Assembly (NCBI GenBank): GCA_050012555.1
Contig: JBEKGY010000018.1
Location: forward strand, 2,475-66,474
Length of the DNA: 64,000 nt
Direction: 5' to 3'
From: Terracidiphilus sp.
GTDB lineage: Bacteria; Acidobacteriota; Terriglobia; Terriglobales; Acidobacteriaceae
A program made the translations under genes and the position numbers. How positions within the stretch are numbered: the first letter of the stretch is position 1; the number at the start of each line of letters is the position of its first letter. Positions 14,701 to 44,879 of this stretch are shown here, one piece after another. Under the pieces are notes generated by a model that had not been told where the DNA came from, made no database searches, and saw only the letters and a list, made by a program, of their open reading frames with translations.

Positions 14701-15788
14701 ATGGTGTAAACCGCCGAGCCCACCGCGCTCTGCAAATATCCGCTTGCCGTGGCGATGGCCTCCAACGTCTCCGAGGAGGAGACATTGATCGGGCTGGAGT
14801 AGACCGCTGAACTGGTCGTCGGCGTGGTGCCGTTGGTGGTGTAGTAGATCGTCGCTCCGGAGGTCGAATCGCTGATGGTTACGCTCTGCGCGGAGGAATA
14901 GTTGCCGCCTGCCGGACTGAAAGTCGGCGTGGCTGCCTGCGCACCAATGGTATACGCCGCCGAACCCACCGCGCTGTTCGTATCTCCGCTGTGTGTTCCG
15001 AGGGCCTTCAGCGTCTGGCTAACCGACACCGTGACCGGTGAGGTGTAGTGGGTCGAGGCGGTCGTTGGCGTACTTCCATTGGTGGTGTAGTAGATATTCG
15101 CACCCGAGGTAGTATCGCTGATGGTCACCGTCTGCGACGAGGAATACGTGCCGGCTCCCGGGCTGAAGGTCGGCGTGGCTACATCGATGGTGTACTTCGC
15201 CGAGCCCACCGCGCTGTTCGTTTTGCCGCTGTGTGTGGCCAGGGCCTTGAGCGACTGGCTTACAGACACCGTGACCGGTGAGCTATAGAGGGTCGAGGCG
15301 GTCGTCGGCGTATTTCCATTGGTGGTGTAGTAGATCGACGCGCCCGAGGTGGTATCGCTGATGGTCACCGTCTGCGTTGCGGTGTACGTACCGGCTCCGG
15401 GGCTGAAGGTCGGTGTGGCAACTTGGATGGTGTATTTCGCCGAGCCCACCGCGCTGTTCGTATCGCCGCTGTGCGTGCCGAGGGCCTTCAGCGTCTGGCT
15501 AACCGACACCGAGACTGGTGAGCTATAGAGGGTCGAGGCGGTCGTCGGCGTACTTCCATTGGTGGTGTAGTAGATCGAGGCGCCCGAGGTCGTGTCCGAG
15601 ATGGTCACCGTCTGCGTCGAGGTATACGTTCCGGCCCCGGGGCTGAAGGTCGGAGTAGCCACCGTTGTGGCCCAGGCCGTCGTGCCGCTCGCACAGAATG
15701 CCAGGCAGAGGATAAGGCTGAACATGCTCAGCGCATTCGAGTGAAGACGAGACATCACCCAACCGGAAAGGGATCGACTAGTTAACAT
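11766..15788 (-). CDS. Large secreted protein with eight chitobiase/beta-hexosaminidase C-terminal (Fn3-associated) repeats and two non-repeat domains
   Basis: Signal peptide; eight units of PxFSPxxGxY...IYYTT(N/D)GxTPT...SAxYTI type. Confidence 0.88.
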   Translation of the reverse strand: MLTSRSLSGWVMSRLHSNALSMFSLILCLAFCASGTTAWATTVATPTFSPGAGTYTSTQTVTISDTTSGASIYYTTNGSTPTTASTLYSSPVSVSVSQTLKALGTHSGDTNSAVGSAKYTIQVATPTFSPGAGTYTATQTVTISDTTSGASIYYTTNGNTPTTASTLYSSPVTVSVSQSLKALATHSGKTNSAVGSAKYTIDVATPTFSPGAGTYSSSQTVTISDTTSGANIYYTTNGSTPTTASTHYTSPVTVSVSQTLKALGTHSGDTNSAVGSAAYTIGAQAATPTFSPAGGNYSSAQSVTISDSTSGATIYYTTNGTTPTTSSAVYSSPINVSSSETLEAIATASGYLQSAVGSAVYTISSSSTPILTVQHNSGDNPTATSLAVPFNSNVTAGNVLLVAVSTYDGVSLDTPTDSLSNSYTQLVTLGTSGASVAAIYAATSNSSGADTVTCNISSSNNIHCHIYEVQGITTTMDQSGSSSLTNTSLSVSTSASTSNADDYVLAYFSDNANQSTYTAGPGLGDTEMTGESSGDSGFSEDKVVIATGVQTATATASLDDTYVNVIVALKTTGTPTVSTPTFSPAAGTYIYAQTVTISDWTAGESIYYTTNGTTPTTSSTLYSSPITVSVTQTLQAIAVSSGFANSAVASAVYTITPPAATPTFSPAAGSYSSAQTVTISDGTSGSTIYYTTNGYTPTTASTVYSSPISVSVWETLEAIAIAPGYSLSPVGVASYTIGNGEAAAPVFSPGAGTYDAAQTVTLSDGTSGATIYYTTNGSTPTTSSSKYTSAITVSATETLEAIATASGYNQSGVATAVYTINTTSGACDGMSLGTSVAGTADLNGFLPFQNATGITTLWNTNIYNAAVDPNNATIQGTAGYSGESTHINFGSSPSDGGIPFMIVDSSQTPSVPINVIDYANQSDNVVAPYPSNVPIEGAAADCSGWPDTYQSDSHTNVLDRNTCWDYETYNTNRCNGLYDASEETIWDMANGEMRPWGWTSTDAAGLSVMAGLVKYDEAASGTIKHAIRFTMQQSKNDANGGYFVEPASHAAGTTYGAPTVEGMRVRLNSTFSISGYSAINQTILTALQQYGMIMADNGGYFYLQGATDSRWNDSDLANLAGIPSSDFTVIQMTPEYPGWDSVTAPTGSAPVINSFTASATTISSGTPVTFTYSVTGDSYDYIDMIGPVRLTSGSGSVTVAPTSTQTYTLYSVNQYGNNGAGDGYGIDVSTPITIVVPGSVVAAPTFTPVAGTYSAATAVTLNSTTYPFATIYYTTDGSTPTYPPTGTTKQYPVIPQPMSPQSVGNLEDITVSASETVKAIAVAPGYSSPSAVSSATYTIN
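14944..15663 (-). repeat. Three near-identical 240-bp tandem units within the repeat protein
   Basis: Lines at 15121, 15361 and 15601 start with the same ATGGTCACCGTCTGCG, giving a 240-bp period. Confidence 0.9.
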
Positions 15789-16177: not shown

Positions 16178-17383
16178 CTAGTTTTCCGCGAAGGCCCTCG
16201 CCTCGTTTTCCAATTGCGGATCCCAGTTCCTAGGCTGATAGATGCAGCACGGCTCCTGCGCCAGCGGATCGCCGGTCACGGCGTAGGCCCGCGCCCGCGA
16301 ACCCCCGCAGATCTCCTTGTACTCGCACGCCCCGCACTTGCCTTCCAGCTTGCTCGTGTCCCGTAGCGATTTGAAAATAGGCGCGTTGCGATAGATTTCC
16401 TGGAGCGGCGTCTCTTTCACATTGCCGGCGTGGATGGGCAGGAACCCGCTCGGATACACATTGCCCACATGCGAGATAAACAGGAAGCCCTTGCCGTCGT
16501 TCACCCGCCGCGTAGCCCAGCTCGCGGTGCGCGTCCTGGCGTCGCTGGTCGGCGCGCCGGCCTCGTAACCATTTGCATTACCATCACTTGCGCTATGCGG
16601 ATGCCCGTGGGCGCTTCCGTGGCCCAGGTGCCGCTCCTCCAGATTGTGCTGCAAGAGGTAGCGCCGGTAGTGCATCGCCTCCGTGGTCTTGATCTGGAAG
16701 CTCACCCGGTGGCTCAGCTCGTAGATCTTGCCGAAGACCTGCTCGAACTCCTCGCCCGAGAGCAGGTCGGCAAGCTGCCCGCGCCCCACCGGAACCAGGA
16801 AAAACACGTTCCACATGACGATGGCCAGCTTCTCGAAGAGAGCGCATAAGTTGTCCAGATCATGCGCGTTATGCCTGCTGATGGTGGTGTGTACCTGGAT
16901 TGGAATGCCCGCTTCGTTAGCCCACTCGATGGCCTGGATGGTCCGCGCCCAGGCGCCGGGAAGGCCCCGGAAGGCGTCGTGAATCTCAGGCGTCGAGCCG
17001 TCCAGCGAGATGCCCAGCCGCACCAGGCCCGCCTCTTTTAACTTAAAAATCGCTTCGCGAGTCAGCAGAGGCGTGGCGCTCGGCGTAAGCGCCACCATCA
17101 CGCCCTGGCCCGCGGCGTAGCGGATCAGCTCGAATACGTCCTTTCGTTTCAACGGGTCGCCGCCGGTAAAGACAAAAATCGGCACGTGCATCGCGGCAAT
17201 CTGGTCGATCAGCGCCTTGCCCTCGGACGTGCTCAGCTCATCCGGGTGGGCGATGGGCTGGGCAGCGGCGCGGCAGTGTTTGCAGGCCAGATCACACGAT
17301 TGTGTGCACTCCCAGATCGCCAAAAATGGCGTTTCGTCGAAGTTCAAGCCCCCGCGTACGGGAATGTTGTGCATCGGTTTCAT
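16178..17383 (-). CDS. Radical SAM/SPASM protein, AhbD/NirJ-like (TIGR04053-type)
   Basis: CDLACKHC motif, FTGGDP, GKCGACEYKEICGGSRARAYA...C SPASM region; GGAGG upstream. Confidence 0.88.
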   Translation of the reverse strand: MKPMHNIPVRGGLNFDETPFLAIWECTQSCDLACKHCRAAAQPIAHPDELSTSEGKALIDQIAAMHVPIFVFTGGDPLKRKDVFELIRYAAGQGVMVALTPSATPLLTREAIFKLKEAGLVRLGISLDGSTPEIHDAFRGLPGAWARTIQAIEWANEAGIPIQVHTTISRHNAHDLDNLCALFEKLAIVMWNVFFLVPVGRGQLADLLSGEEFEQVFGKIYELSHRVSFQIKTTEAMHYRRYLLQHNLEERHLGHGSAHGHPHSASDGNANGYEAGAPTSDARTRTASWATRRVNDGKGFLFISHVGNVYPSGFLPIHAGNVKETPLQEIYRNAPIFKSLRDTSKLEGKCGACEYKEICGGSRARAYAVTGDPLAQEPCCIYQPRNWDPQLENEARAFAEN

Positions 17384-17620
17384 GACCCCTCCAGCAGAAT
17401 CGCTCCAAAAACGTTTTGGATCGGCCCGAAGATGCAGGACCTGCGCTGGGGATCAAGCGATTTTTCCAATCATTCAAGAAAACTAAGACACTGCCGATAA
17501 GATTTACCTCCCGTGGGAGGAGACCATCTTGCAAGGTTCAGGCAGGGCCCCGTGAATTGGCTAACCGCTCAGGAGCGCCACGATTCCGCTCCAGAAGAGC
17601 AGTCACGGCACCGGGCAGGC

Positions 17621-17636
17621 TGTGATTGGGATCACA
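17621..17636. promoter_or_regulatory. Perfect CRP-type box
   Basis: TGTGA-ttggga-TCACA between the divergent radical SAM and USP genes. Confidence 0.7.
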
Positions 17637-17794
17637 TTATCTTGCTCAATCGACAGACTCCGACTTTGCCCGCTGGACAAGTCTACGCAAGAGAGCGCAA
17701 TTCTAACTCCGGTGAACGATGAAGCTGAAGCCGTCGTTTTTATGGGCAGACCCGGATTGCCGGAGCGCTGAAAGCCGGTGATTCTTCCTTGCGA

Positions 17795-17810
17795 AGTGAG
17801 TTAAATCACC
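17795..17810. promoter_or_regulatory. CRP-type box upstream of USP
   Basis: AGTGA-gttaaa-TCACC (8/10 match). Confidence 0.5.
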
Positions 17811-17884
17811 TTCCCATGTGCCGCCCGGCACCGCATCCGCATGCCGAGTCTGCCAAAATGTTGCCGCGTTTCCAGGAGGTTCCC

Positions 17885-18844
17885 ATGGCAGCCATAATCA
17901 AGCCTGGTTGGAGCAAACCCTCCACCATCCTCTTTGCCTCCGAGATTCCCGCCAATGAGAAGGCCTTCGCCTTTGCTCTTGCGCAAGCCGTCGAGTTTGG
18001 CGCCGATCTCATCCTCTTTCACGCCTATGACACTCTGGTAGTGACCGCATCGGAGACTTCGGGTATTCGCTATTACGACTATGCCGCTGCTGCCCACGCC
18101 GAAAAAGAGCTACTTGAGCCTCTGGCCCAGCGCGTTCGGGACGCCGGTGTTTCATGCGAACTGGTCGTACGCCCGGGATTGGCCGCCGACCAGATCCTCG
18201 CCTGCCTGCGCGAGCGGGAGATCGACCGCATCGTCATGGGCACCCACTCTCCCGGCCCCATCGGCAAGCTGCTGGTGGGTTCGGTGGCCGAGGCCGTGCT
18301 GCGCACCGCAAATGTGCCGGTCTGCATCGTGGGCCCCGAGGTGGTCGACGGCGCCTACCGCAAGTATGCCACCAGCACCATTCTGTGCGCAGTAAGCCTC
18401 CAGGAGGCCAGCCATATGGTAGCCGGCTTTGCCGCGGAACTGGCCGCCCAGCACAACGCGCGCCTGATCCTGCAGCATGTGATCCGGCCCCAGGAGCGCG
18501 CAGAGGTCCTCGCCAGCTACACCCTCGACCAGCTTGAGGCCGACCTGTTGGCCCTGATTCCGCCCGGGTTGCAGCGCAAGATCGCCGTGCAAACCATCGT
18601 GGTGCCCGGCGATCCGACGGAGGAACTGCTCTACCAGTGCAGAGCCCAGCTGGCCGACCTCATCGTGCTGGGAGCGCACGGCGCATCGGCCTTCGCCGCC
18701 ATCACCCGCCACGGCGTGGTGTACAAGGTGCTGGCCCACGCACACTGCCCGGTCATTACGCTCTCGCCCGCCGTGCTGGCGGAGTGCGGCGTGAAGGAAG
18801 AAAAGCACAGTTCGGTTGAGGCCTATATGGCCGGCGTCTTCTAG
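17885..18844 (+). CDS. Tandem-domain universal stress protein
   Basis: AGGAGG before ATG 17885; IVMGTH...LVGSVAEAVLR and LIVLGAHG...AHCPV. Confidence 0.9.
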   Translation: MAAIIKPGWSKPSTILFASEIPANEKAFAFALAQAVEFGADLILFHAYDTLVVTASETSGIRYYDYAAAAHAEKELLEPLAQRVRDAGVSCELVVRPGLAADQILACLREREIDRIVMGTHSPGPIGKLLVGSVAEAVLRTANVPVCIVGPEVVDGAYRKYATSTILCAVSLQEASHMVAGFAAELAAQHNARLILQHVIRPQERAEVLASYTLDQLEADLLALIPPGLQRKIAVQTIVVPGDPTEELLYQCRAQLADLIVLGAHGASAFAAITRHGVVYKVLAHAHCPVITLSPAVLAECGVKEEKHSSVEAYMAGVF

Positions 18845-23490: not shown

Positions 23491-24243
23491 CTAGAGCAGC
23501 GTTTGCAACTGCTCCGGCTGGTGAAGGGTGACCAGGGAGTCTTTGATCGAGATCCAGCCGTCCTTGCGGAACTGGCCGAGGGTGCGGGTGACGGTTTCGC
23601 GGGTGGTGCAGGTCATCGAGGCCATCTCCTCGTGGGTCAGCAGCAGCGGGAAGCGGTAGCCGCCGCCGTCCAGGTGTTCGCCGATCTGATGAGCCAACTC
23701 GAGGAGCAGCCGTCCCAGGCGGGCGGCCACGGTCTCGGCCAGCGCGATGCGGCAGGCGTCCTGCAGCGCGAAGCGGTACTCCTGGCAGATGCACTGGACG
23801 GCGCGCATCTGCGCCTCCTTGTGGCTGCGCAGGAAGCTGAGAAACCTGTCGCGCTCGACGGGGCGGAGCTGGGCGCTGGTCAATGACTCGGCGGAGACCT
23901 CGTAGACGCCGTGGGAGAGAACCGCATACAGGCCCAGCATGGAGCCGGGTCCGGCGACGCGGACGATCATCTGACGATCCTCAAGGCGTCCGGCGGTGAG
24001 CTTGAGATAGCCGCCACAGATCAGATAGAGGCAGCGGGCATCCTCGCCCTGAGTAAACAGGGAAGCCTGCGCGGGAAGGGCGATGGTGCTGGTGGCCAGT
24101 TCAAGATCGGCCAGAACGGCGCTGCCCAGAGAGCAGAACCATCCGGGGCGGCGATTGCCGCAAGCCGCACAGCCCACTGGAACCGGCCGCGCAACGTGCT
24201 TTTTCCGCGCATGAACTTCTGCCGAGATCGCTGTGTCCACCAT
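23491..24243 (-). CDS. Crp/Fnr-family regulator with N-terminal Cys cluster
   Basis: CAAC-x8-C N-terminus, LFTQGE cNMP-like fold, HTH LTHEEMASMTCTTRETVTRTL. Confidence 0.93.
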   Translation of the reverse strand: MVDTAISAEVHARKKHVARPVPVGCAACGNRRPGWFCSLGSAVLADLELATSTIALPAQASLFTQGEDARCLYLICGGYLKLTAGRLEDRQMIVRVAGPGSMLGLYAVLSHGVYEVSAESLTSAQLRPVERDRFLSFLRSHKEAQMRAVQCICQEYRFALQDACRIALAETVAARLGRLLLELAHQIGEHLDGGGYRFPLLLTHEEMASMTCTTRETVTRTLGQFRKDGWISIKDSLVTLHQPEQLQTLL

Positions 24244-24404: not shown

Positions 24405-24420
24405 TGTGATGGGCCTCACG
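24405..24420. promoter_or_regulatory. CRP-type box upstream of the crp/fnr gene (possible autoregulation)
   Basis: TGTGA-tgggcc-TCACG (9/10). Confidence 0.55.
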
Positions 24421-24789: not shown

Positions 24790-24859
24790 TGTGATGAACG
24801 TCACCGTTTGGTACAAAATTGCGCGTTAATATTCAGCGAATGAAGTGATGCTCCGCACA
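24790..24859 (+). promoter_or_regulatory. Predicted class II Crp/Fnr promoter of the cytochrome operon
   Basis: TGTGA-tgaacg-TCACC 24790-24805; -10 TAATAT 24827-24832 puts the box centre at -41.5; second box AGTGA-tgctcc-GCACA 24844-24859. Confidence 0.65.
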
Positions 24860-24926: not shown

Positions 24927-25904
24927 ATGCATAGAGATTGGTCTGTAACGCAACTGCCGATGAATGCGGCTCCGGGCAAGAAGCCGGGACTGCGAGCCTG
25001 TTTGATGTTGATGCTGGGCGCAAGCATCACCTGCGCCACTGCTCTCGGAGCTCAGGCGCCCAAAGCCGATCCGGGCGCCAAACCGGCCGCCGCTCAGGCC
25101 AAGGAAGCCGCACCTGCTGAGTTTGTGGGCGCAGAAACCTGCGCTACATGTCACGAAGAGGTGGTCAAGGGGTTCGCCGACAATCCTCACACCAAAATGG
25201 TGCTGATGCACGGCAACGGGGGTGTGACCTGCGAGAACTGCCACGGAGCGGGCAGCGAGCACGTGGCGGGCGGCGGGGACGTGACCAAGATCTTCGATCC
25301 CGCCAAGGCCTCGGCCAAAGATGTGGACGCCAAGTGCCTGGGCTGCCACGCGGGAGCGCATCCCAACTTCCTGCGCGCTCCTCATGCCAAGGCCGGCGTA
25401 AGCTGCGTCAGTTGCCACAGCGTGCACGCCAAAGGCGACAGGGAATCCCTCCTCAAGGCTCCTCAGCCCACGCTCTGCTATCAGTGCCACACCGACGCGA
25501 AGCCGGCGTTCGATATGCCGTTCCACCACAAGGTGAACGAAGGCCTGGTCAAGTGCAGCGACTGCCATGACGTTCACGGCACCTTCGGGAACAACAACAT
25601 TAAGTCTACGGCTGATCAAAATATGATCTGCACCAAGTGTCACATGGAGAACCGTGGGCCTTTCGTGTACGAGCACGCACCGGTCAAGGCGGAGGGCTGC
25701 CTGTCATGCCACACTCCGCATGGTTCTCAGAACGCCCGGCTGATGAACATGCCGAGTATCAACACGCTGTGCAACCAGTGCCATAGCCCGGTCTCCGCCG
25801 CCACGGTTCACGGAATGAACGCAGGATCGTCGGAGATACTGCCATGCATCGACTGCCACACCATGATCCATGGGTCCAATCTCAATCAGGCGTTCCTCAA
25901 GTAA
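24927..25904 (+). CDS. DmsE/MtrA/MtoA-family periplasmic decaheme cytochrome c (start may be 24960 or later)
   Basis: Ten CxxCH (CATCH, CENCH, CLGCH, CVSCH, CYQCH, CSDCH, CTKCH, CLSCH, CNQCH, CIDCH); RGPFVYEHAPV and IHGSN family motifs; signal peptide. Confidence 0.95.
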   Translation: MHRDWSVTQLPMNAAPGKKPGLRACLMLMLGASITCATALGAQAPKADPGAKPAAAQAKEAAPAEFVGAETCATCHEEVVKGFADNPHTKMVLMHGNGGVTCENCHGAGSEHVAGGGDVTKIFDPAKASAKDVDAKCLGCHAGAHPNFLRAPHAKAGVSCVSCHSVHAKGDRESLLKAPQPTLCYQCHTDAKPAFDMPFHHKVNEGLVKCSDCHDVHGTFGNNNIKSTADQNMICTKCHMENRGPFVYEHAPVKAEGCLSCHTPHGSQNARLMNMPSINTLCNQCHSPVSAATVHGMNAGSSEILPCIDCHTMIHGSNLNQAFLK

Positions 25905-26024
25905 TGGAGCTCGGCCGCGCCCTCCAGACCCATCGGACGGCGCGGCCCGGATCCCGTACCAAGTTCGTGCACGTGTTCAAGATTTCGATGTCAGCAACAA
26001 TGTTTTTTTCAAGTGAGGCTTCAT

Positions 26025-28694
26025 ATGAAAACGATAGGCTGGTTTTCTAGGCTGTCCAATCAACAGCACTCTCTGGCAATGATCCTGCGCGCCGCTGGGG
26101 GCATTGGACTCGCCATTTTACTGATGACGGGGGGCATCGCGGTCGCCCAGGATAATCCGACGCCCGCCAACCCATTGCCGAAGCCGGAGTCACAGATGAC
26201 TGTCCCGCATGGGTATTCGATCCATGAGAGCGTGGATGTAGGCGGGCGCATAGCCAGCATCTCGGGCAGCGGGGCCATGTACGACACGCTGGTCAATCTG
26301 CAGACCGGGCCGCGCTTGCTTGGCGAGACCTTTGAGATGCGTGCTCGTCCAGAAACTAAGCATACCCTTTTCGATTCCCTCAGGGCCATCGGCAACGGGC
26401 TCGGCGGCGATCCGTACAACTTCGCCAAGCTGGACTTCTCCAAGGGCAAGATCTACGAGTTCTCGGGACTGTTCCGTCGCGACCGCCAGTACTTCGACTA
26501 CGATCTGCTGGGCAACCCGAATATTCAATCGGGGCTGTCGATTCCCTACGGGAAAACAGCCGGTGTGCCGACTGCGTCGTCGCTTGCCTGGCCGCAGGTT
26601 ATGCAATCGCCGGTGATGTTCAACACGGTGCGCCGCATGACGGACACCAACCTCACCATCCTTCCGCTATCGAAGGTGACGTTTCGGGCGGGGTACTCGC
26701 AGAATATCTTCCAGGGCCCGACCCTGAGCCCTGGTGAATCTGTCGGCAAGTACGATTCCCTGCTCTCGGAGTATCAGCGCAACAGCACCGACGATTTCAC
26801 GGGGGGGATCGATTGGAAGCCCGTGCGGGACACCAAGTTGACCTTTGAAGAGGAGGTCGACCACTACAAGGCAAACTCCTATTTTACTCTGGCGCCAAGC
26901 GACTTCATTGTGCAGGAATTGGACGGAACACCGGTGTCCCTTGGCGATTGGGACAGCCAGGCCGCCTACGGCATCGGCGCCTGCATTACAGGCAGCATGG
27001 GCAGTGGATACACCAACTCAACCCACTACACCATCCTCTCGGCGCCGCTAACTACCGGCGGCCTGCCGGTCATCAATCCGGCATGCGATGTGGCTACAAG
27101 CTACCTGCGCTCGCAGCCGACGCGCATTCTCTACCCCACGGAGATTTTCCGGCTGCAAAGCGCAAGCATCAAGAATATCTCGATGAACGGTGATTTCCGC
27201 TACACCAGCGCAAATATGAACCTGCCCAACTACTACGAGAATTTCCAGGGCCTGCTTGGGGAGTCGAAAACTGGTACGGGAGTCACCCCCGCATACCCTG
27301 CGCAGGCAGTCCGCTCTGCGACGTTTACGGGTAGCGCGACCGCCAAGCGGGAGGTGGTAGCTGCCGACTATGGCATCGTCTGGCAGGCAACCAAGACGGT
27401 CAGCCTCTCTGAACAAATTGACTACTCCAATGTTCACCAGCCCGGCACCGCCAACATCTCGGATGGGATCACTGCAAATACGCCCACGAACCCGAATGAA
27501 ACCATCAACTACTCAGGTCCGCTGGGCCCTGGAGTCAATCTCACTGCTGAGGGCAGCCCCAACGGCACTCCCCTGCCTGACTACTTTGGCCAGAAGATCC
27601 TGACCAATAACGTGACCGGGACCTGGGATGCCTCCTCTCGCGCCACGCTCTCGTTCACTTATCGCTACCGCACCCACACCATCGGCGAAGGCATTCCCAA
27701 TAACGCTCCATTAGCCGTGGGCGCGGATACAAACGGAACCGTAACCATTAACGAAAACGGTGGAATCTTCAACGCCGCCCTACGTCCCACCAATAATTGG
27801 GATGTCAATGGCACGGTGGAGATACTCTACGACGACAACGCCTTCACCCCGGTCGGTCCGCGGCAGACGAAGCACTATAGAGTGCATACCATGTACAAGC
27901 CAAAGCCCTGGGCGACGGTATCGGGCGCCTATAACGACCTGGAACGGCATAACAACACCAACAACAACCAGAGCGCCGTCACGGCAGCCGATGTCCCGTA
28001 CGAGGGCCCGCTCGATCATGTCGATTACAGCCGGGTTTTCAGCCTGGGCGCGGTGCTGTTGCCGAATGAGCACTACGGGCTCGATCTCAATTACGCCTAT
28101 AGCGATGTGTATGCGGCGACCAACATCTGCTATGACAACGGCGCCCAGAACGCCTCGACCACCGTGGGCCTGCCCGGCACTGCCTCGACCACAAGCGGCG
28201 GAGCACCGAATGTATGCCCTGGCGTCTTCACCAGGGGGTCGACGACCCAACTCGCGGATTGGTTTGCCCGGGACTTCATGTCTGCTCCCACGCAATACGG
28301 ATCGGTGGCTCTCGCGATGTCCCCCGTCAACAAAATCCATTCAAATATCGGCTATCGCATCAGCTCCGTGAGCGGCAGCCAGTTTTTCAACGATGCGCGG
28401 GCGGTCAACGGCTCGCTGGTTTCTACGTATCAGTCTCCCTTTGTGAATCTTGCATGGACGGTCCGTCATGGAATGATTATGAAGGCAGAATACAACTTCT
28501 ACGGCTACGGCGAGGGCGGTCCTTCCGGCCCGCAGTTCTGCAGCACTTCAACGTCTACGACATCAACGGTTGCTCCTTGCGCGTCTTTCGCTCCAACCTA
28601 TCTGACCGGCCTAACCGAACCGCCTTCCGGTCTGACCGCACCCCGGAACTTTCACGCCAATAACGTGACCCTTACTGTGCATTACGAATTCTGA
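26025..28694 (+). CDS. MtrB/PioB-like outer-membrane beta-barrel
   Basis: Directly follows the decaheme gene; signal peptide; amphipathic strands; C-terminal LTVHYEF beta-signal. Confidence 0.8.
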   Translation: MKTIGWFSRLSNQQHSLAMILRAAGGIGLAILLMTGGIAVAQDNPTPANPLPKPESQMTVPHGYSIHESVDVGGRIASISGSGAMYDTLVNLQTGPRLLGETFEMRARPETKHTLFDSLRAIGNGLGGDPYNFAKLDFSKGKIYEFSGLFRRDRQYFDYDLLGNPNIQSGLSIPYGKTAGVPTASSLAWPQVMQSPVMFNTVRRMTDTNLTILPLSKVTFRAGYSQNIFQGPTLSPGESVGKYDSLLSEYQRNSTDDFTGGIDWKPVRDTKLTFEEEVDHYKANSYFTLAPSDFIVQELDGTPVSLGDWDSQAAYGIGACITGSMGSGYTNSTHYTILSAPLTTGGLPVINPACDVATSYLRSQPTRILYPTEIFRLQSASIKNISMNGDFRYTSANMNLPNYYENFQGLLGESKTGTGVTPAYPAQAVRSATFTGSATAKREVVAADYGIVWQATKTVSLSEQIDYSNVHQPGTANISDGITANTPTNPNETINYSGPLGPGVNLTAEGSPNGTPLPDYFGQKILTNNVTGTWDASSRATLSFTYRYRTHTIGEGIPNNAPLAVGADTNGTVTINENGGIFNAALRPTNNWDVNGTVEILYDDNAFTPVGPRQTKHYRVHTMYKPKPWATVSGAYNDLERHNNTNNNQSAVTAADVPYEGPLDHVDYSRVFSLGAVLLPNEHYGLDLNYAYSDVYAATNICYDNGAQNASTTVGLPGTASTTSGGAPNVCPGVFTRGSTTQLADWFARDFMSAPTQYGSVALAMSPVNKIHSNIGYRISSVSGSQFFNDARAVNGSLVSTYQSPFVNLAWTVRHGMIMKAEYNFYGYGEGGPSGPQFCSTSTSTTSTVAPCASFAPTYLTGLTEPPSGLTAPRNFHANNVTLTVHYEF

Positions 28695-28716
28695 CCGGGC
28701 TTTGCCCGCTAACCAT

Positions 28717-28753
28717 CGGCGCAGTACCTGAAAGCTAGGGGCTGCGCCGTTTC
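28717..28753 (+). terminator. Hairpin after the barrel gene (weak terminator or stabiliser)
   Basis: CGGCGCAGT...GCTGCGCCG followed by TTTC. Confidence 0.45.
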
Positions 28754-28894
28754 ATGTGAGATGGTTTATCTTGCCATCCTGGTTGCATCCCTTGCGACTC
28801 AACCCTTTCGCCGGGGTTGTAATATGAAGAAGAAAAACGCTCGGCCGGTGCTGCTACAACGCAATCCGGCCGACAAAACTCAAGGAGTTTCGCA

Positions 28895-29236
28895 ATGACA
28901 AAGACGATTCGATCCCTGTTGGTGCTGGCCGCTGTAGTGTGTCTGGCCGGCGCCGTGGGCTTCGCCCAAACCTCAGGCGACGCAACCTACAAAGCCAAGT
29001 GCGCGATGTGCCATGGCGCCTCCGGCGTCCCCAGTGCGGGGATGGCCAAGGCGATGGGCATCAAGGCAGCCTCCGAGCCGGCAATCAAAGCCCTCACGGC
29101 GGAGCAGATGATTGCCGCCGTCAAGAACGGCAAGGGCAAGATGAAGCCTGTTGCCGGACTTACCGATGCGCAGATGAAGGATGCGGTGAATTCCTACCGC
29201 AAATTCCTGAACCCGCAACCGCTGCCGCCCGGCTAG
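28895..29236 (+). CDS. Periplasmic monoheme class I cytochrome c
   Basis: AAGGAG RBS, signal peptide, CAMCH, distal Met in GKGKMKP. Confidence 0.92.
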   Translation: MTKTIRSLLVLAAVVCLAGAVGFAQTSGDATYKAKCAMCHGASGVPSAGMAKAMGIKAASEPAIKALTAEQMIAAVKNGKGKMKPVAGLTDAQMKDAVNSYRKFLNPQPLPPG

Positions 29237-29423
29237 TAAGGGCCGCGGCCTACCGTAAAAGTCCCGCCCTGGAGCGAGACCATGACAGGTGTGCCCAAAG
29301 CCAAGGCTGCGTAAGTATTGATCTCCTTGAGAAATCAATACCCCGTACAAGGGGTCTTTCAGGGCGCCGCAATCGTGATATCGTTTTCCTCGGCGGGTCA
29401 TCCGTTTGAGAGTGGGGGATAAA

Positions 29424-30857
29424 GTGCCAGTGCTCAAAAAATTTCGTGAAAACTGGGTGCGCCCGGCGCTGTTCTTCGGCAACAACCCCATCAGCCTTGC
29501 AGGCGGAGCCATCACCAGCGCCTCCGGCGTGACCATGATCGGCTATTGGCTGGTGGAGATGTTCGGCCGGCCGTACGACAACCCCTACCTCGGCATCATT
29601 TTCCTCCTGATTCTGCCGGCTCTGTTTATCGCCGGGTTGCTGTTGATTCCGGTGGGCCTGTTTCTGCGCCGCAGGAAGCTGCAAATCGCAGGGCAGATTC
29701 CTACCGAGTTTCCCAAGATCGATCTCAACGACCGGATCTTCCGCCGCGGCCTGGACATCGTGCTGCTGTCCACAATTGCCAACCTCCTGGTTGTGTCCAT
29801 AGCCACCTATCGCGGCGCGGCCTACATGGATTCGCCCCAGTTCTGCGGCCAGTCCTGCCACGTAATGCACCCCGAGTTCACGGCCTACAAGATCTCCGCG
29901 CACTCTCATGTCGCGTGCGTTGACTGCCACATCGGCTCCGGCGCGGCCTCCTACTTTGCCGCCAAGGTAAACGGCACCAAGCAGATTGTTGAAGTCACGT
30001 TCGATACCTACCCCAGGCCCATTCCATCGCCGGTGGAGAATCTGCGCCCGGCGCGGTATATCTGCGAGGGCTGCCACACGCCGGCCAGGTTTGTCGGAGA
30101 AAAGCTGCTGGTCAAGTCAAACTTTGCCGACGACGAGAAGAACACCGAGACCCAGACGGTGGTGGTCCTGCACCTGGGCGGCGAGGATTCTCTTTCGCAC
30201 CTGACCGGGATTCACGGCGTGCACCTGGGCCACATCGAGTATGTCGCCACCGATCCCACCCGCACCGCCATCCCCTGGGTGCAGAAGCGGAACCCGGATG
30301 GCTCGGAAACCGTGTTTGCCACGGCCGCCGCTGGTAACGCCGTTCCCCAGGGCGAACGGCGGGTGATGGATTGCATCGACTGCCACAACCGCGCGGCGCA
30401 CACCTTTGTGACTGCGGAAGATGCGCTCAACCGGGCGATGGCCGAGGGTGCGGTCAGTCCGGAGCTGCCCTGGGTTCACAAAGAGGGTCTGGAACTGCTC
30501 AAGGCTGCCTATGCCTCCGAAGACGAGGCGAGCGCCAAGATTCCCGCCGGGCTGGAAGCCTTCTATCGCGCCCAGCATCCCGATGTGCTGGCCGCGAAGG
30601 CCGCGCTGGTCAAGTCCGCGGGCGAGGAACTCGTGGTCCTCTACAGCCAGAACGTCTTCCCCTTTATGAAGGTGACCTGGGGAACGCACCCCAACCACAT
30701 CGGCCACATTAGCTATCCGGGCTGCTGGCGCTGCCACGACGGCGACCACACGGCCAAGGACGGCACAAGCATCACCAATGACTGCGCGGCCTGCCACAAC
30801 CTGCTGGCTCAGGACGAAGCCAAGCCCAAGGTGCTTTCCGACATGGGCATTCAATAG
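29424..30857 (+). CDS. NapC/NirT-family, ImcH-like inner-membrane multiheme cytochrome
   Basis: Three N-terminal TM segments; CGQSCH plus CVDCH, CEGCH, CIDCH, CWRCH, CAACH; GTG start after GGGGGA. Confidence 0.88.
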   Translation: MPVLKKFRENWVRPALFFGNNPISLAGGAITSASGVTMIGYWLVEMFGRPYDNPYLGIIFLLILPALFIAGLLLIPVGLFLRRRKLQIAGQIPTEFPKIDLNDRIFRRGLDIVLLSTIANLLVVSIATYRGAAYMDSPQFCGQSCHVMHPEFTAYKISAHSHVACVDCHIGSGAASYFAAKVNGTKQIVEVTFDTYPRPIPSPVENLRPARYICEGCHTPARFVGEKLLVKSNFADDEKNTETQTVVVLHLGGEDSLSHLTGIHGVHLGHIEYVATDPTRTAIPWVQKRNPDGSETVFATAAAGNAVPQGERRVMDCIDCHNRAAHTFVTAEDALNRAMAEGAVSPELPWVHKEGLELLKAAYASEDEASAKIPAGLEAFYRAQHPDVLAAKAALVKSAGEELVVLYSQNVFPFMKVTWGTHPNHIGHISYPGCWRCHDGDHTAKDGTSITNDCAACHNLLAQDEAKPKVLSDMGIQ

Positions 30858-31148
30858 AAGAACCTGTAGCTCACCACCGCAGCGGCTTCAACCCGTCGCT
30901 GGGGCATCCAGGCGCCGGATGCCGAGAATCATTACTTTCTGGCTTACTGTGCCGGTCCCGCTGCATAATCTAGTGTTTAAGCACCCTCCACCGCTATACA
31001 ATCGGGACGAAGTGCTACGAACCCCATAGCCTCTGCCAAAAAGGCAGCCGGTTTTTTAAGACCGTTCGATGAAGGGGATGGGGTATTGCCAATTCCGCCT
31101 GTCTGGAATGAGGTACAGGTCTTTCCGGGTTCGTGTACAAAGAGGAAC

Positions 31149-34100
31149 ATGGCACACAAACTGAGCCTCGGTCTGCCGCTCGCAATTTTTCTCCTGGCCA
31201 GCCCCGGAGTATTCAGCCCAGGAGCGGCCGTGGCCCAGGCCTCTGCCCCGGCTTACCACCCCACGGACGTGGACCTGTCCGCGGGGACCCCGGATTCTCA
31301 CCCCACGGACAAAGACCTGTCCGTGGGGGCCCCGGATTCCCGTCTGGCCGGTGATTGGCGCAGTTCCGATGCGGTGGCGATTCCCGCATCCGAACCGCCG
31401 AACAATCTAGGTGCGCAGGGCCCTGCGCCCGCCGGCATGAAGTTGGGGCGGATGCTGTTACTGCTCGTGCCCTCGGCGGCCCAGAAGCAGGCGCTGACCG
31501 CGGAGCTTGGGAACCTGCAGAATCCGGCTTCGCCTCAATATCATCAATGGCTCACGCCAGCGGCCTTCGCCGCAACTTACTCGAACTCCGCCGCGGATGT
31601 TGCCGCGGTTTCTGCCTGGTTAGAGAGCCAGGGCTTCCAGGTCGCTCCCTTGCCCGCCAGCCGTGGCTGGATCGAGTTCTCCGGAACGGTTGCCCAGGTC
31701 GAGCAGGCCTTCCACACTCAAATCGACTCTGTCGTCACGGGGGGCGAAATGCGTGCCGCGCTGGCTCAAGGGATTTCAGTCCCCTCCGCGCTCGCGCCCC
31801 TGGTGCAGGGACTGGTCTCCCTCGATGGAGCCCTTTCCACGCCCGCTTTGACCGCGCCGCGGCCCGTCGCCGTCTCCGCGGCCGAGCTGGCGGCGGAGAC
31901 CTCGCTGAACCACGCTGAGGCCCTGACCCCCCAATTGGCCGCGCAGCTTCTTCATCTTGACGCGCTGCAGGCCGCCGGCGTCGGCGGCGCAGGCGAATCG
32001 ATCGCCATTGCGGCACGCAGTAACGTGAACAGCCAGGACGTTGCCGCCTTCCGCGCGGCCTTCGGTATCCATGGCGGCCCCGCGACCCCGCTCACAGTCA
32101 CTCCGAACGGCCCCGATCCTGGAAATACAAGCGACCAGGCCGAGGCCACTCTGGCAGTTTCCTGGGCCGGCGCTGCCGCTCCCAGCGCACGAATCGTGCT
32201 GATTCCAGCGGCTACCACCTCCGCCACCGACGGATTGGACCTGTCGCTGGCGGCCATCGTCGATCAGGCTCTGGCGCACGCCGTAGCCGTGGGCTACTCG
32301 AACTGCGAGGCGGCTCTGAGCCAGGCGCACCAGGCCTTCTATTCCGCGCTCTACCGGCAGGCGGCCGCGGAGGGCATAGCGGTGATTGCCGCCGTTGGCG
32401 ACAGTGGCCCCTCGGCTTGCCATTTGGCGGGCAGCGACGCTCCGGTGAGCAGCGGTTATGGCGTCAACGCGCTGGCCTCCACGCCCTGGAACACAGCAGT
32501 GGGCGTTGCGGCCTTTGGCCCGGCAGGTCCGGCGGCTGGTAACTCCGCTCTGGCGGCATGGTCTCCGGCAAGCGCGACCGATCCGGCCTATGCCGGCGGA
32601 GGCGGCAGCAGCACGCTCTATGCCGCGCCTATTTGGCAGCCGATACCGGCAGAATCCCAACAGGGAACAGCCGGAACCGGAAACCATAACCGGCTCTTAC
32701 CGGACCTGGCCCTGCCCACAGCCATCGATACAAGCGTGAATCCAGGCCTGGCCTTCTGCCTCAGCGCTTCCACTGCTTCCAGCGGATGCACCCTGGTGCG
32801 CAGCGGAGGCAGTTCCGCCGCCACGGCCATCTTTGCCGGTGTTGCGGCCCTGTTGGCTGAAAAGTACGGCGCGCAGGGCAACCTAGCGCCCAATCTGTAT
32901 GCACTCAGCCGGCAAAGCGGCATCTTCGAAGACGTGCAGAAGGGCAGCGCGCAACTCAAGTGCGTCGCAGGCAGCCCCGGCTGCGGCGCTACGGAACAGA
33001 TCGGCTTTACCGCCGGCCCCGGCTACGACCTGGCCACCGGACTGGGTTCGATCAACGCCCAGACGCTGGTGAACCACTGGGCTACTCCCGAGGTGACGGG
33101 CGCCGCGGTCACCGTGAGCATCGAGATTGCGCCTACAGAACACAACGCGACCTACAACCCCTCGGCCGAGATTACGCTGTCGTCCACTGTGACCCCGGTG
33201 GCTGCCGGCGCCACGCCCACCGGCACCATTACTTATTACAATACGGTCGCCGCCTCAGCGCTTTCCTCGGCGTCCACGGTAACGCTCAGCCCCACCGGGA
33301 CCGCGTCGTGGACCTTCAACCTCGACAGCGTTTTTACTTCTACAGGCACCTACAGTATCGGAGCTTCGTACTACAATTCGTCAGGCACCTACGCATCCAC
33401 CAACTCAGAGCCGTTAATGATCACAACTGGGCCAAGCTCCACCGTCCTCACGGTTACGCCTTCCAACCTCACTCCGACGGTCGGCACAACCATTACGGTG
33501 ACTGTCACCTTCGGGGTTTCGACGGCCAACGGTCCCCCTGCAGGCAGTGTCGCGCCCACAGGTTCCGTGACGCTGAATATCAATGGGACGCCCACCTATA
33601 CTTCGCCGGTGACGACCGTAAACGGCGTCACAACCGCGACCTTCTCGGTGCCGGTTTCCGCCACCACACATACGCTGCAGGCTGTATACGCGGGCGATGC
33701 GAATTACACCGGGGCCAATGGCCAGGTGAACATTACCGTGGTCACCACGCTGCCCGATACCGTGGTCCTCACCTCGAACTTCTCTCCTGTCCCTCCAGGA
33801 GCGGCGGTGATCCTCACTGCGACGGTGACGCCGAATACACCGCCAGCCGCGGGCGCGGAGCAGAATCCCTCCGGCAACGTCATCTTCTACGACGGAACCA
33901 CCGTGATCGGGGAGGCTGCGCTGGTTCCAATACCGATGAGCGACTCCTCCACGGCGTCCATTACCACGCAAACGCTGCCGGGCGGCTCCGACATGCTCTC
34001 AGCTGTTTATCTGGGAGACTCTTCCTACGACACCGAAACCTCGAATATTCTCACCCTCGCTGTTGAGAACTTCACCATCACCCCGTCGCCTTCGAACCCT

Positions 34101-34631
34101 CCCACCAATCTCGACATCGTGCAGGGCGCGTCGGGCACCGCATCGTTTATCGTCACCGGCCTGGGCGGGTTCGACAATGAGATTCAGGTGGTGTGCGCCG
34201 TGCCTACCCAGGACGACATGACCTGCACCGCAACTCCGCAACAGATTGTCCCCCCCGGCACGGTCACCTTCCTCATACAGACCTTCACCACGGGAGGACC
34301 CTCGGCATCCGCCGGCCATCGCGAGCCAATCTGGCCGCGCGCGGCAGGCGGCACGGCGCTGGCCGGGTTGGGATTCTTCCTGCTGCCGTTCGGGCGACGG
34401 GCGCGCATCTTTGCACGCCGTTCCACGCGGCGCTTCCTTGTACTGCTCCTGCTGCTGGTGGGTCTGGGCGGCGCGGGCATCGGCTGCAACAGCGTCAGCG
34501 GAACCGTTCCCCCCTCCTCCGGCACTCCTCTGGGCGTGGCCACACTCAAGATCACCGCTGCCGCCTACGTGGACAACACCGTTGTCAGCCAGAGCGTGTA
34601 CCTAACGGTCAATGTGCTGGCCGCGCCCTAA
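31149..34631 (+). CDS. S53 sedolisin-like protein with pro-domain, Ig-like repeats and C-terminal membrane tail (catalytic Asp apparently lost)
   Basis: NPASPQYHQWLTP pro-domain, GDSG, LPDLA, GYDLATGLGS, YAGDANY/YLGDSSY Ig motifs. Confidence 0.88.
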   Translation: MAHKLSLGLPLAIFLLASPGVFSPGAAVAQASAPAYHPTDVDLSAGTPDSHPTDKDLSVGAPDSRLAGDWRSSDAVAIPASEPPNNLGAQGPAPAGMKLGRMLLLLVPSAAQKQALTAELGNLQNPASPQYHQWLTPAAFAATYSNSAADVAAVSAWLESQGFQVAPLPASRGWIEFSGTVAQVEQAFHTQIDSVVTGGEMRAALAQGISVPSALAPLVQGLVSLDGALSTPALTAPRPVAVSAAELAAETSLNHAEALTPQLAAQLLHLDALQAAGVGGAGESIAIAARSNVNSQDVAAFRAAFGIHGGPATPLTVTPNGPDPGNTSDQAEATLAVSWAGAAAPSARIVLIPAATTSATDGLDLSLAAIVDQALAHAVAVGYSNCEAALSQAHQAFYSALYRQAAAEGIAVIAAVGDSGPSACHLAGSDAPVSSGYGVNALASTPWNTAVGVAAFGPAGPAAGNSALAAWSPASATDPAYAGGGGSSTLYAAPIWQPIPAESQQGTAGTGNHNRLLPDLALPTAIDTSVNPGLAFCLSASTASSGCTLVRSGGSSAATAIFAGVAALLAEKYGAQGNLAPNLYALSRQSGIFEDVQKGSAQLKCVAGSPGCGATEQIGFTAGPGYDLATGLGSINAQTLVNHWATPEVTGAAVTVSIEIAPTEHNATYNPSAEITLSSTVTPVAAGATPTGTITYYNTVAASALSSASTVTLSPTGTASWTFNLDSVFTSTGTYSIGASYYNSSGTYASTNSEPLMITTGPSSTVLTVTPSNLTPTVGTTITVTVTFGVSTANGPPAGSVAPTGSVTLNINGTPTYTSPVTTVNGVTTATFSVPVSATTHTLQAVYAGDANYTGANGQVNITVVTTLPDTVVLTSNFSPVPPGAAVILTATVTPNTPPAAGAEQNPSGNVIFYDGTTVIGEAALVPIPMSDSSTASITTQTLPGGSDMLSAVYLGDSSYDTETSNILTLAVENFTITPSPSNPPTNLDIVQGASGTASFIVTGLGGFDNEIQVVCAVPTQDDMTCTATPQQIVPPGTVTFLIQTFTTGGPSASAGHREPIWPRAAGGTALAGLGFFLLPFGRRARIFARRSTRRFLVLLLLLVGLGGAGIGCNSVSGTVPPSSGTPLGVATLKITAAAYVDNTVVSQSVYLTVNVLAAP
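31257..31340 (+). repeat. Two tandem in-frame 42-bp palindromic elements
   Basis: CACCCCACGGAC-N8-GTCCGYGGGG..CCCGGATTCY twice, encoding HPTDVDLSAGTPDS and HPTDKDLSVGAPDS. Confidence 0.9.
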
Positions 34632-43591: not shown

Positions 43592-44410
43592 TCATTCTAC
43601 CGAAGACGCTTCGCTTGCCAATAGCTCTTTTGATGCGACGAGCGGAGTTGAAGCGGCAGGGATATTCACGGCCGCAATGCGATCAGGCGCTACGCAGGCC
43701 AAAAGCGTAGCCGCGATGATCCGCATGTCGGACCAGAGAGTTGCACGGCACATATAGCGCGCGTCGATGCGCGCCTTCAGCGGCTTGATCCGGTGGTCAT
43801 AAAACAGGTCCAGATTGCCCGGGTGAACGCGACTCAAGATATCCTCTTCGCGGCGGAAGGCAAGCGTTGCTGCGCCAGTGATGCCGGGACGATAAGGCAT
43901 GTTGTAGATTGCTTCATATTGCGGCAGCTTGGGCCGGGGACCGACCAGGCTCATCTCCCCGCGCAGTACATTATAAAACTGCGGGAACTCATCGAGCTTG
44001 AATTTGCGCATCAAGCGGCCTATTCCGGTGATGCGCTTATCTCCGTTTCTTGTTAGCCAGGGGCCAAGGCCTTTTTCCGGGGCCACTGTCATACTGCGGA
44101 ACTTATAGATGCCAAAGAGGCGCCCTCGCCGGCCGACGCGATTCTGCACAAAGAGCGCCGGTCCATTCGAGGAGAGAAGCACGCAAAGGGCGATTGCCAG
44201 CATCGGAACAGCTAAGACCGCCAGGACCAGAAGAGCAACCGAAATATCGAGGAGTCGCTTGGAACGGGACAGGCTCCAGACGCTTGCGGATGGGTTGTCG
44301 ATCAACACTGTGCGAACGGGAGTGGCTATATCGGGACGCATCAATGCGGGGAGGCGCGATGGCAAAGCTGCGACAGTGCTTGATTCAAACACTCGACTGG
44401 ACAGTTGCAT
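43592..44410 (-). CDS. Priming phosphoglycosyl transferase (bacterial sugar transferase; start uncertain)
   Basis: KRLLDI, YKFRSM, KLDEFPQ...GEMSLVGPRP, RPGITG. Confidence 0.88.
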   Translation of the reverse strand: MQLSSRVFESSTVAALPSRLPALMRPDIATPVRTVLIDNPSASVWSLSRSKRLLDISVALLVLAVLAVPMLAIALCVLLSSNGPALFVQNRVGRRGRLFGIYKFRSMTVAPEKGLGPWLTRNGDKRITGIGRLMRKFKLDEFPQFYNVLRGEMSLVGPRPKLPQYEAIYNMPYRPGITGAATLAFRREEDILSRVHPGNLDLFYDHRIKPLKARIDARYMCRATLWSDMRIIAATLLACVAPDRIAAVNIPAASTPLVASKELLASEASSVE

Positions 44411-44879
44411 GGAAACGAACCTCGACAGGTGAAATTGGAATTCTGAGTATTGGCGAAAACCTTCAGCGCAGAGAACCTGGCTTGGGACTAATGCTGCCTC
44501 GCCAAGAGACTCCACATACGGTCCCGGGCATCGGCCGCAAATGAATTTTCGCCTTGATTCGTGTGGTCCGCGAGAACGGGAGGATAAATCGAAGGATGGG
44601 AGAGGCGCGAATGGAACCGTTCCCGTTATAGAACTGCGATAAGTAAGTTCTAATGAAGAGCCGATGAGCAATAAGATGCCATAAGTTTCAAGGATAAGTG
44701 CATATCCTGGTCGTCCTTATCGCATCTTTCAAGCAAGAGCGTGCTTTTGCTTGGCGGGAGAGGAGACTTTATCTCTGGCGCACGTATCCTCCACAAGCGC
44801 CAGAGATGAGAAACTGCTTATCCCGCAATCGGGCCGATCATGCAGGGCACACACGCCGCTCCCAAACGGCGATGTGGGC

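Follow-up and report, generated by a model that had tools for sequence, protein, structure and literature searches.

Gene content of the locus

The stretch of DNA considered here, hereafter the window, comprises 64,000 nucleotides (nt) of contig JBEKGY010000018.1 (C18) from the genome of a Terracidiphilus sp. (assembly GCA_050012555.1, 3.7 Mb, 89.5% complete), and it carries at positions 24927-30857 four co-directional + strand open reading frames (ORFs) for, in this order, a decaheme cytochrome c, a predicted outer-membrane β-barrel, a monoheme cytochrome c and a six-heme cytochrome of the ImcH family (Table 1). A first-pass annotation, made from the sequence alone, had read these as a co-directional decaheme, barrel, monoheme and six-heme NapC/NirT protein of a probable acidobacterium, all of which is upheld here. 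The cluster is flanked by a divergent Crp/Fnr-family regulator gene on one side and an S53 peptidase gene on the other (Pfam), and among these profile-annotated neighbours there is no gene for MtrC or DmsAB, the latter as the same annotation had stated. On the evidence set out below, the products of the four genes probably work as a single conduit that carries electrons outward in anaerobic respiration.

Table 1. Features of the cytochrome cluster and its upstream region (window positions; aa, amino acids)
Feature	Position	Strand	Remarks
DmsE/MtrA-family decaheme cytochrome c	24927..25904	+	325 aa; alternative ATG 24960; TIGR03508, 6R2Q_A
Predicted MtrB-fold outer-membrane β-barrel	26013..28694	+	893 aa; likely start ATG 26025; structure model
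Class I monoheme cytochrome c, periplasmic, likely His/Met, likely shuttle	28895..29236	+	113 aa
Six-heme ImcH-family inner-membrane cytochrome, likely menaquinol oxidase	29406..30857	+	483 aa; likely start GTG 29424
Crp/Fnr-family regulator, likely Fe-S/redox sensor	23491..24243	-	divergent; Pfam cNMP and HTH_Crp_2
CRP-type palindrome, box 1	24405..24420		upstream of regulator gene; likely autoregulation site
CRP-type palindrome, box 2	24790..24805		centred at -41.5 of predicted cluster promoter
Predicted -10 hexamer TAATAT	24827..24832	+	predicted transcript start near 24839
Weaker second palindrome	24844..24859		54 nt downstream of box 2; overlaps predicted transcript start

Decaheme cytochrome and barrel

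The decaheme protein contains ten CXXCH motifs and is, by sequence, a member of the DmsE/MtrA family, with a score of 254.4 bits against TIGR03508 (DmsE-family decaheme; curated cut-off 192.2) and a nearly full-length alignment to Shewanella MtrA (6R2Q_A, E 7e-35). The proximal His of all ten motifs, and nine of the candidate distal ones, are kept in at least 91 of 93 homologues, while H295, the tenth candidate distal ligand, is kept in 73 of 93; M197 is also kept (91/93).

The barrel protein has no heme motif, ends in a C-terminal Phe and finds no match in Pfam or NCBIfam at E≤0.01. The MtrB/PioB profile PF11854 has no match in the whole host genome at E≤1 and none among 36 full-length representatives of the barrel family, chosen from 150 listed. 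The profile itself works, because two other decaheme-linked barrels in relatives match it strongly (E 7e-93 and 1e-84); a profile of the barrel family, in turn, scores these two barrels at E 0.03-0.11 only. A route to MtrB through a profile of 73 homologues searched against the PDB was tried and discarded, with no match at E≤10. By these comparisons the barrel lies outside the MtrB/PioB sequence family, and the label "MtrB-like" rests on its fold match because the sequence profiles give none.

The AlphaFold2 model of the barrel (predicted local distance difference test, pLDDT, 81.3; predicted template modelling score, pTM, 0.70) has 26 membrane strands, on our count, and no plug. Its top Foldseek match is MtrB (6R2Q_B, E 6e-14), which VIA-align superposes with Z 23.7, a root-mean-square deviation of 4.5 and 585 of 649 residues aligned at 9% identity, the runner-up reaching Z 17.2. 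The protein is thus predicted to have an MtrB-type porin fold that is closest to MtrB itself. At 9-11% identity it is about 200 aa longer than MtrB, with the surplus in loops that strand parity in the model would place outside. These outer loops hold six Cys (three Cys pairs), four of which are kept in 72/72 close homologues and two in 63/72; among 76 more distant representatives, wide alignment is limited to C313, C661 and C690.

Structure prediction of the two proteins together, run without modelled hemes on barrel residues 19-848 and the decaheme part with hemes 4-10, scored 0.75, compared with 0.00 for the best of three controls; the mark used for such scores is reached by 116 of 157 solved pairs and by 2 of 215 mismatched ones. 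The runs share at least 77% of contacts, with a partner pLDDT of at least 70, and the predicted decaheme contacts involve every second residue of strands surrounding the lumen, as well as several outer loops. The decaheme is thus predicted to sit inside the barrel. The first-pass annotation had spoken of an MtrA/B-like pair and had proposed profile searches and a structure prediction as checks: the MtrA half is supported by sequence, the MtrB half by fold and not by profile, and in the model the barrel does enclose the decaheme.

The barrel family is large, with 2234 clusters at 90% identity among 7995 scored candidates and 1905 representatives at 50% identity; the host has one copy, and the closest homologues (85% identity) are labelled Terracidiphilus sp. 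One family member (P0153) carries a C-terminal monoheme cytochrome c domain, in a single sequence that could be an artefact. A probable decaheme-porin fusion was also encountered in a related genome (L068:5618-8956, G031:C22), encoding a 1112-aa protein with ten N-terminal CXXCH motifs (DmsE-like) and one more at 624, whose long C-terminal part has Trp as its last residue.

Monoheme cytochrome and ImcH

The monoheme protein has one CXXCH motif, a class I cytochrome c domain (Pfam) and a signal-peptide-like N-terminus, and its M83 is kept in 131/131 homologues, so that His/Met ligation appears likely from sequence; a role as periplasmic electron shuttle is likewise likely. The protein is basic (isoelectric point 9.7), in contrast to the acidic soluble part of ImcH (5.9).

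The ImcH-family protein matches PF03264 (NapC/NirT) and carries one CX3CH and five CXXCH motifs at 147/171/220/323/440/460, with the spacing of Geobacter GSU3259 (132/156/205/311/428/448) and Acidobacterium capsulatum ACP_0476 (142/166/214/317/434/454), as listed in Table S3 of PMC6295460, where six-heme ImcH is catalogued in several Acidobacteria. Its model shows three membrane-length N-terminal helices (28-52, 60-95 and 110-141), of which two passed a hydropathy scan at a threshold of 1.6; the heme domain is poorly modelled (mean pLDDT 60.7, pTM 0.35), and only these helices were used. Helices and spacing together bear out the earlier description of a three-helix ImcH-like protein. The residues E127, K173, Q179 and Y188 that have been named for Geobacter ImcH (10.1101/2023.05.03.539133), namely the Gln at heme 1 and the acidic, Lys and Tyr residues of the quinol site, correspond to D142, K187, Q193 and Y202 here when mapped by spacing rather than by direct alignment to GSU3259; the first three are each kept in 75/75 homologues and Y202 in 66/75. 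The Geobacter protein is described as oxidising menaquinol in an electroneutral manner (10.1101/2023.05.03.539133), ImcH has been implicated solely in quinol oxidation (PMC6295460), and menaquinone is indicated in the host by two futalosine-pathway genes. Judged by its sequence, the present ImcH is likely a menaquinol oxidase.

Conservation of the gene order

Among 24 same-genus genomes, the barrel is found in 22, an ImcH match in 21 (one of them a contig-end fragment) and the decaheme at E<1e-70 in 21. The 20 loci that have the barrel and a full ImcH match all keep the order decaheme, barrel, monoheme(s), ImcH, and because this order is kept in relatives, the arrangement is not one of chance. 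Two monohemes are present in 12 of these loci and a divergent Crp/Fnr orthologue in 17; most of them sit between mnmG/DUF4440 and an RNase II gene, and in three (L042, L050, L060) the barrel is split across frames, either through sequencing error or through decay of the gene.

A larger set, the best 80 of 355 confirmed loci in a species-level genome collection, overlaps the same-genus set in part and contains kin that are not independent. Its carriers include metagenome-assembled genomes from soil and from bog and fen peat, and also a cultured isolate, Silvibacterium bohemicum S15, with all four genes and a perfect promoter box (L101). The decaheme lies directly upstream of the barrel in 73 of the 74 loci with room for it, a monoheme downstream in 63/71 and ImcH downstream in 48/71. 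In a class-wide draw of 301 genomes, with ImcH in 132 and the decaheme in 192, ImcH lies within 12 kb of the decaheme in 34 of 81 genomes (by decaheme position among the matches listed), in six families and in more than one gene order. Because of these counts, decaheme and barrel are a fixed unit by synteny and ImcH is a frequent, non-obligatory neighbour.

Several relatives show other combinations. In another family of the order (L074:8112-8966, L075:4459-5091), the genes downstream of short divergent barrels encode a monoheme and, in the place of ImcH, a small NapC/NirT cytochrome, which suggests that the inner-membrane partner is exchangeable. Second decaheme clusters with canonical PF11854 porins occur in two genomes (L069 in G023, L070 in G005), with a partial ORF of 33 CXXCH motifs near L070. 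At three loci (L071, L072, L073) another type of decaheme, with about 50% identity, stands without a porin, and at two of these it adjoins multiheme bc-type cytochrome genes.

Searches for an external partner

The first-pass annotation had noted the lack of MtrC, and none was found in the cluster or with the profiles used: TIGR03507 (OmcA/MtrC) has no match in 41 genomes and PF22113 none in five genomes at E≤1e-12, both searches being run without a positive control. PF22113 does reach or exceed its cut-off with parts of two proteins, one CbcL-like and the other a dehydrogenase-linked cytochrome, and these matches are read as generic multiheme similarity, and none of the 23 ORFs of the genome with at least two heme motifs is MtrC-like. 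As for DmsA, the sole molybdopterin-family (PF00384) match in the 89.5%-complete genome is NuoG-like.

These searches bear on a reading in which the cluster is not self-contained: porin and decaheme would serve an unrecognised surface partner, or a terminal reductase whose gene lies elsewhere, and ImcH would be a quinol oxidase of general use that does no more than share their regulation and, often, their locus. The absence of ImcH beside the barrel in 23 of 71 loci, and from the vicinity of the decaheme in 47 of the 81 class-level genomes compared, would fit such an arrangement, as would the lack of a positive control in the MtrC searches, the incompleteness of the genome and the presence of an unexplained 752-aa five-heme TPR protein on contig C11. 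The negative results for MtrC and for a molybdopterin reductase speak against it, as does the linkage that recurs across six families in several gene orders, and an internal promoter box between barrel and ImcH is seen in only 1 of 49 loci. We consider this reading unlikely.

The TPR protein just mentioned is encoded between an FG-GAP/ASPIC gene and a monoheme gene (C11:47633-49960, L034). A further cytochrome locus, on contig C8 (95855-100287, L033), comprises a monoheme, an 11-heme cytochrome, a cytochrome b and a gene joining 11 hemes to cytochrome b (CbcL-like), and lies behind two CRP-type boxes; like Geobacter, the host therefore possesses a CbcL-like protein in addition to ImcH.

Promoter boxes and a probable regulon

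Upstream of the cluster lies a palindrome, TGTGA-N6-TCACA (box 2), that was spotted first in the window and then tested in the promoters of relatives. With one mismatch allowed and a reach of 600 nt upstream, 20 of 22 promoters, that of the window among them, contain it, where resampling predicts 0.36, and in the larger promoter set a CRP-type box is present in 66/73; the FNR-type site TTGAT-N4-ATCAA occurs in none of the 22 cluster promoters. These two motifs are the consensus sites of CRP and FNR, respectively. Counted from the first position of the box, a TAnnnT hexamer follows at 37 or 38 nt in 19 of 21 promoters (the box-less L051 being left out) and in 42/45 of the larger set, and because of this spacing the box centre is placed at -41.5 or -42.5; a palindrome centred at -41.5 occupies the position of a class II activator. 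No -35 consensus was found in the cluster promoter, and scans of sigma-70 promoters (2 vs 2.4) and terminators (5 vs 6.3) did not rise above shuffles and were set aside. The weaker second palindrome keeps its spacing in most relatives' promoter rows and is possibly a feedback-repression site. This regulatory layer, namely the divergent Crp/Fnr gene and the box at -41.5, had been missed by the first-pass annotation and is the main addition to it.

The genome as a whole holds 73 CRP-type boxes, 11 of them perfect, compared with 27-46 boxes (0-2 perfect) for control spacers, and the hexamer stands at +37/38 for 14 of the 73 as against about one per other offset. The FNR-type box was rejected as operator, since it is not enriched upstream and its number across the genome hardly depends on the spacer (108 sites with gap 4 and 100 with gap 6). 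Annotation of the genes behind 20 chosen boxes and behind the boxes in cytochrome loci returned PFOR, a 2-oxoacid:ferredoxin oxidoreductase, PPDK, formate-tetrahydrofolate ligase (Fhs), hypDE, ccmF, a ccsB-like gene, phosphoketolase, a NapH/G-like ferredoxin, a hydrogenase-4/NuoL-like subunit, FeoA, universal stress proteins (USPs), a tetraheme-FeS-NrfD operon, a Rieske-cytochrome b-octaheme region and the 11-heme/cytochrome b (CbcL-like) genes. This set reads as an anaerobiosis regulon.

The regulator carries a C25-X2-C28-X8-C37 cluster with C76 and a RETVTR recognition helix, and its four Cys are kept in 19/19 aligned same-genus homologues. Among solved structures, actinobacterial CRPs are nearest to it; in an alignment with mycobacterial CRP, the regulator is without the GE and RT residues, which we take to be the cAMP contacts of CRP. 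A pattern for the cAMP pocket, tried on the ten cNMP proteins of the genome, gave no match at all, and was hence uninformative and discarded. A paralogue on contig C58 (15765 region) has the same CX2CX8C...C pattern and RETVTR helix. From these sequence features, the box is likely bound by the divergent neighbour or by this paralogue, with transcription likely activated under anoxia.

The C58 paralogue adjoins a USP gene carrying a perfect box. In the window itself, a TIGR04053 radical SAM gene and a USP gene (16178-18844) diverge from a perfect CRP-type box between them (17621-17636), and radical SAM or USP genes flank the cassette in some relatives too.

A wetland metatranscriptome was considered as expression evidence (0.08 share of words). 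At 85% likeness it yields few identical contigs (e.g. 25515-25886, 29153-29403) and mostly relatives' sequence, and it was not used because its contigs show neither level, strand nor joint transcript and there is no silent-stretch control.

The box-linked genes also bear on a non-respiratory use, in which the conduit would rid the cell of excess electrons from fermentation, or reduce Fe(III) so that iron can be taken up, and would support no growth. FeoA, PFOR and hydrogenase-maturation genes are among those with a CRP-type box, subdivision 1 isolates are described as typically without anaerobic respiration (PMC5900883), and the electroneutrality of ImcH (10.1101/2023.05.03.539133) would agree with it as well. 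A 17-heme chain kept at one locus throughout the genus would, however, be costly for iron uptake alone, and complex I with ImcH has been proposed to conserve energy in Geobacter (10.1101/2023.05.03.539133), a NuoG-like gene being present here. We regard such a use as very unlikely.

Direction of electron flow

In the model that we favour, anoxia would lead a CRP-box-binding, cysteine-rich Crp/Fnr protein to activate the class II promoter of the cluster. Electrons from NADH or H2 would enter menaquinone, ImcH would oxidise the menaquinol at the inner membrane, and the monoheme cytochrome would carry the electrons across the periplasm to the periplasmic end of the decaheme. Within the predicted 26-strand porin, the decaheme would then pass them outward to heme 10 at the mouth of the barrel and from there to a soluble extracellular acceptor; with no MtrC found, this is likely to be Fe(III)-organic complexes or humic quinones. 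Outward anaerobic flow is favoured because of the class II box, the Cys-rich neighbour, the anaerobic genes that share the box and the quinol-site residues of ImcH. The first-pass annotation held that direction cannot be read from sequence, a view that has to be revised insofar as the regulatory evidence favours, without proving, anaerobic outward flow.

The main competing model reverses the current: at low oxygen, electrons from reduced humics or Fe(II) would enter through the decaheme-porin, as in Mto systems, and proceed through the His/Met cytochrome to a terminal oxidase or to ImcH acting as a quinone reductase. In its parts and its lack of MtrC, the cluster is like the MtoAB-PmcA/MtoD-ImoA cluster of Sideroxydans (PMC13390432), and the His/Met type of the monoheme, the two monohemes in 12 of 20 loci, the A-type oxidase-like genes (COX1 match) in 23 of 24 same-genus genomes and a Crp/Fnr activation that also fits micro-oxic conditions are all consistent with inward flow. 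On the other side, ImcH has been tied only to quinol oxidation (PMC6295460; 10.1101/2023.05.03.539133), the co-regulated genes look fermentative or anaerobic, RuBisCO was not found in the 89.5%-complete genome, and the CbcL-like cytochrome shares the box, the pairing of ImcH with CbcL being known from Fe(III) reducers (PMC6295460). An inward conduit is rather unlikely in our assessment.

Neither an A-type nor a bd oxidase was found in the 89.5%-complete host genome, whose sole COX1 match has 762 aa, a length like that of qNOR, and finds no NCBIfam model at 1e-40. The lack of terminal oxidases was rejected as an argument against uptake, since of the 24 same-genus genomes 23 have a COX1 match (22 at E<1e-140) and incompleteness is the likelier cause.

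It has to be noted that a number of points weigh against the outward model. At the locus, the gap between barrel and monoheme is about 200 nt, so that co-transcription is something we infer, and the favourable decaheme-barrel prediction may reflect likeness to the solved MtrAB rather than binding. ImcH is absent beside the barrel in 23/71 loci and unlinked to the decaheme in 47/81 class-level genomes. On the regulatory side, chance alone would account for roughly half of the 73 boxes in the genome, those annotated were hand-picked, and boxes also precede purC, enolase, an aminotransferase and others without a clear anaerobic link; ten genes of the genome have a cNMP domain, two of them with the RETVTR helix, so that both the box binder and its signal are presumed, and the Cys spacing of the regulator differs from what we take to be that of E. 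coli FNR. In its make-up the set of genes matches the Mto cluster of Fe(II) oxidisers, and many His/Met class I cytochromes are of high potential, which would favour inward flow. The last point is tempered by PmcA of Sideroxydans, a His/Met monoheme that interacts with ImoA and MtoA (PMC13390432): because its potential is -143 mV, His/Met ligation does not fix direction. Finally, Mtr-type conduits have been described as reversible (PMC6295460), and mtrAB without MtrC has been read as evidence against Fe(III) reduction of the Shewanella or Geobacter kind (PMC5900883).

Relation to known systems

The cassette is built like the Mto/Mtr porin-cytochrome systems but with ImcH, and it is neither MtrCAB nor DmsEFAB. 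The closest arrangement is that of Sideroxydans lithotrophicus ES-1, in which decaheme, porin, monoheme(s) and a NapC/NirT-type cytochrome are likewise clustered without MtrC (PMC13390432). It differs in that the tetraheme CymA/ImoA is replaced here by a three-helix, six-heme ImcH, the porin lies outside PF11854, the host is heterotrophic with RuBisCO not found, and regulation is of a CRP-box, anaerobic type. The earlier suggestion of a hybrid Mto/ImcH architecture is supported, with clustered Mto-like parts and ImcH in place of CymA/ImoA. With Shewanella MtrCAB-CymA (6R2Q) it shares an MtrA-homologous decaheme, an MtrB-closest barrel fold and the predicted decaheme-in-barrel assembly, whereas no MtrC/OmcA was found, the barrel is longer with Cys-paired extracellular loops, a monoheme stands in for multiheme shuttles and the quinol oxidase gene lies inside the cluster. 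Geobacter sulfurreducens GSU3259 has the same three N-terminal helices, first motif CX3CH, heme spacing and acidic/Lys/Gln/Tyr residues, but it has seven hemes rather than six, is monocistronic and uses PpcA (PMC4251993; 10.1101/2023.05.03.539133), whereas ImcH here follows a porin-decaheme-monoheme block. DmsEFAB has a DmsE-family decaheme in common, while DmsA was not found in the 89.5%-complete genome. The palindrome at -41.5, the N-terminal Cys cluster and the anaerobic-type targets resemble class II regulation by FNR/CRP; unlike FNR, the site is of the TGTGA-N6-TCACA type and not TTGAT-N4-ATCAA, and the Cys spacing is CX2CX8C...C76.

Parts of this picture are already in print separately. 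Sequence-divergent porin-cytochrome clusters that model as Mtr-like have been described from peat Terriglobia as EET1 (porin-scaffold-cytochrome; Terriglobales, UBA7540) and EET2 (Bryobacterales); they are transcribed at depth and proposed to reduce peat organic matter (10.64898/2026.05.27.727921). The main text of that work does not contain "ImcH", "NapC", "FNR" or "Terracidiphilus", and its figures and supplements may include the present cassette. Acidobacterial decahemes have been linked to Fe reduction in Arctic peat (PMC3669403), ImcH homologues in Acidobacteria were reported in 2014 (PMC4251993), and candidate mtrA/mtrB were listed in 2018 for S. bohemicum S15, T. gabretensis S55 and others, though not as complete operons (PMC5900883). 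A survey of the same year counted 19 acidobacterial ImcH and reported having found no mtrAB/mtoAB next to imcH (PMC6295460), a statement that the cassette contradicts; a porin this divergent could explain why the adjacency was missed. The literature search, in which subscription journals are mostly outside coverage, returned no paper on ImcH linkage or a CRP-box regulon.

Other genes of the window

Directly after ImcH, at 31086-34631, lies the gene for the secreted S53 peptidase with Ig-like domains, which occupies the same place in some relatives. Elsewhere, the window encodes a 1340-aa protein with repeated Fn3-associated domains (11766-15788), an exopolysaccharide/capsule gene block (43592-55998) and a rubrerythrin-VIT1 fusion (62424-63629).

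Implications

For the reduction of Fe(III) or humics by subdivision-1 Acidobacteria, genome papers saw no route of the Shewanella or Geobacter type (10.1101/197269, where mtr/omc were called absent in seven peat MAGs, i.e. metagenome-assembled genomes; PMC5900883). The cassette offers a four-gene candidate route, with a promoter that predicts anoxic induction and with S. bohemicum S15 as a cultured carrier. A more far-reaching proposal, which we hold only tentatively and regard as doubtful, is that it constitutes the main self-contained route of humic-quinone/Fe(III) respiration in the abundant Acidobacteriaceae of peat and soil, in which a profile-invisible porin with disulfide-pinned loops replaces MtrC, a single monoheme provides the wiring to ImcH, and a new Fe-S oxygen sensor acting on CRP-type boxes serves as the acidobacterial FNR. 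Since the barrel family is large and escapes PF11854, surveys of peat and soil that rely on profiles are likely to under-count extracellular electron transfer, which in turn bears on the CO2:CH4 balance of peat (10.64898/2026.05.27.727921).

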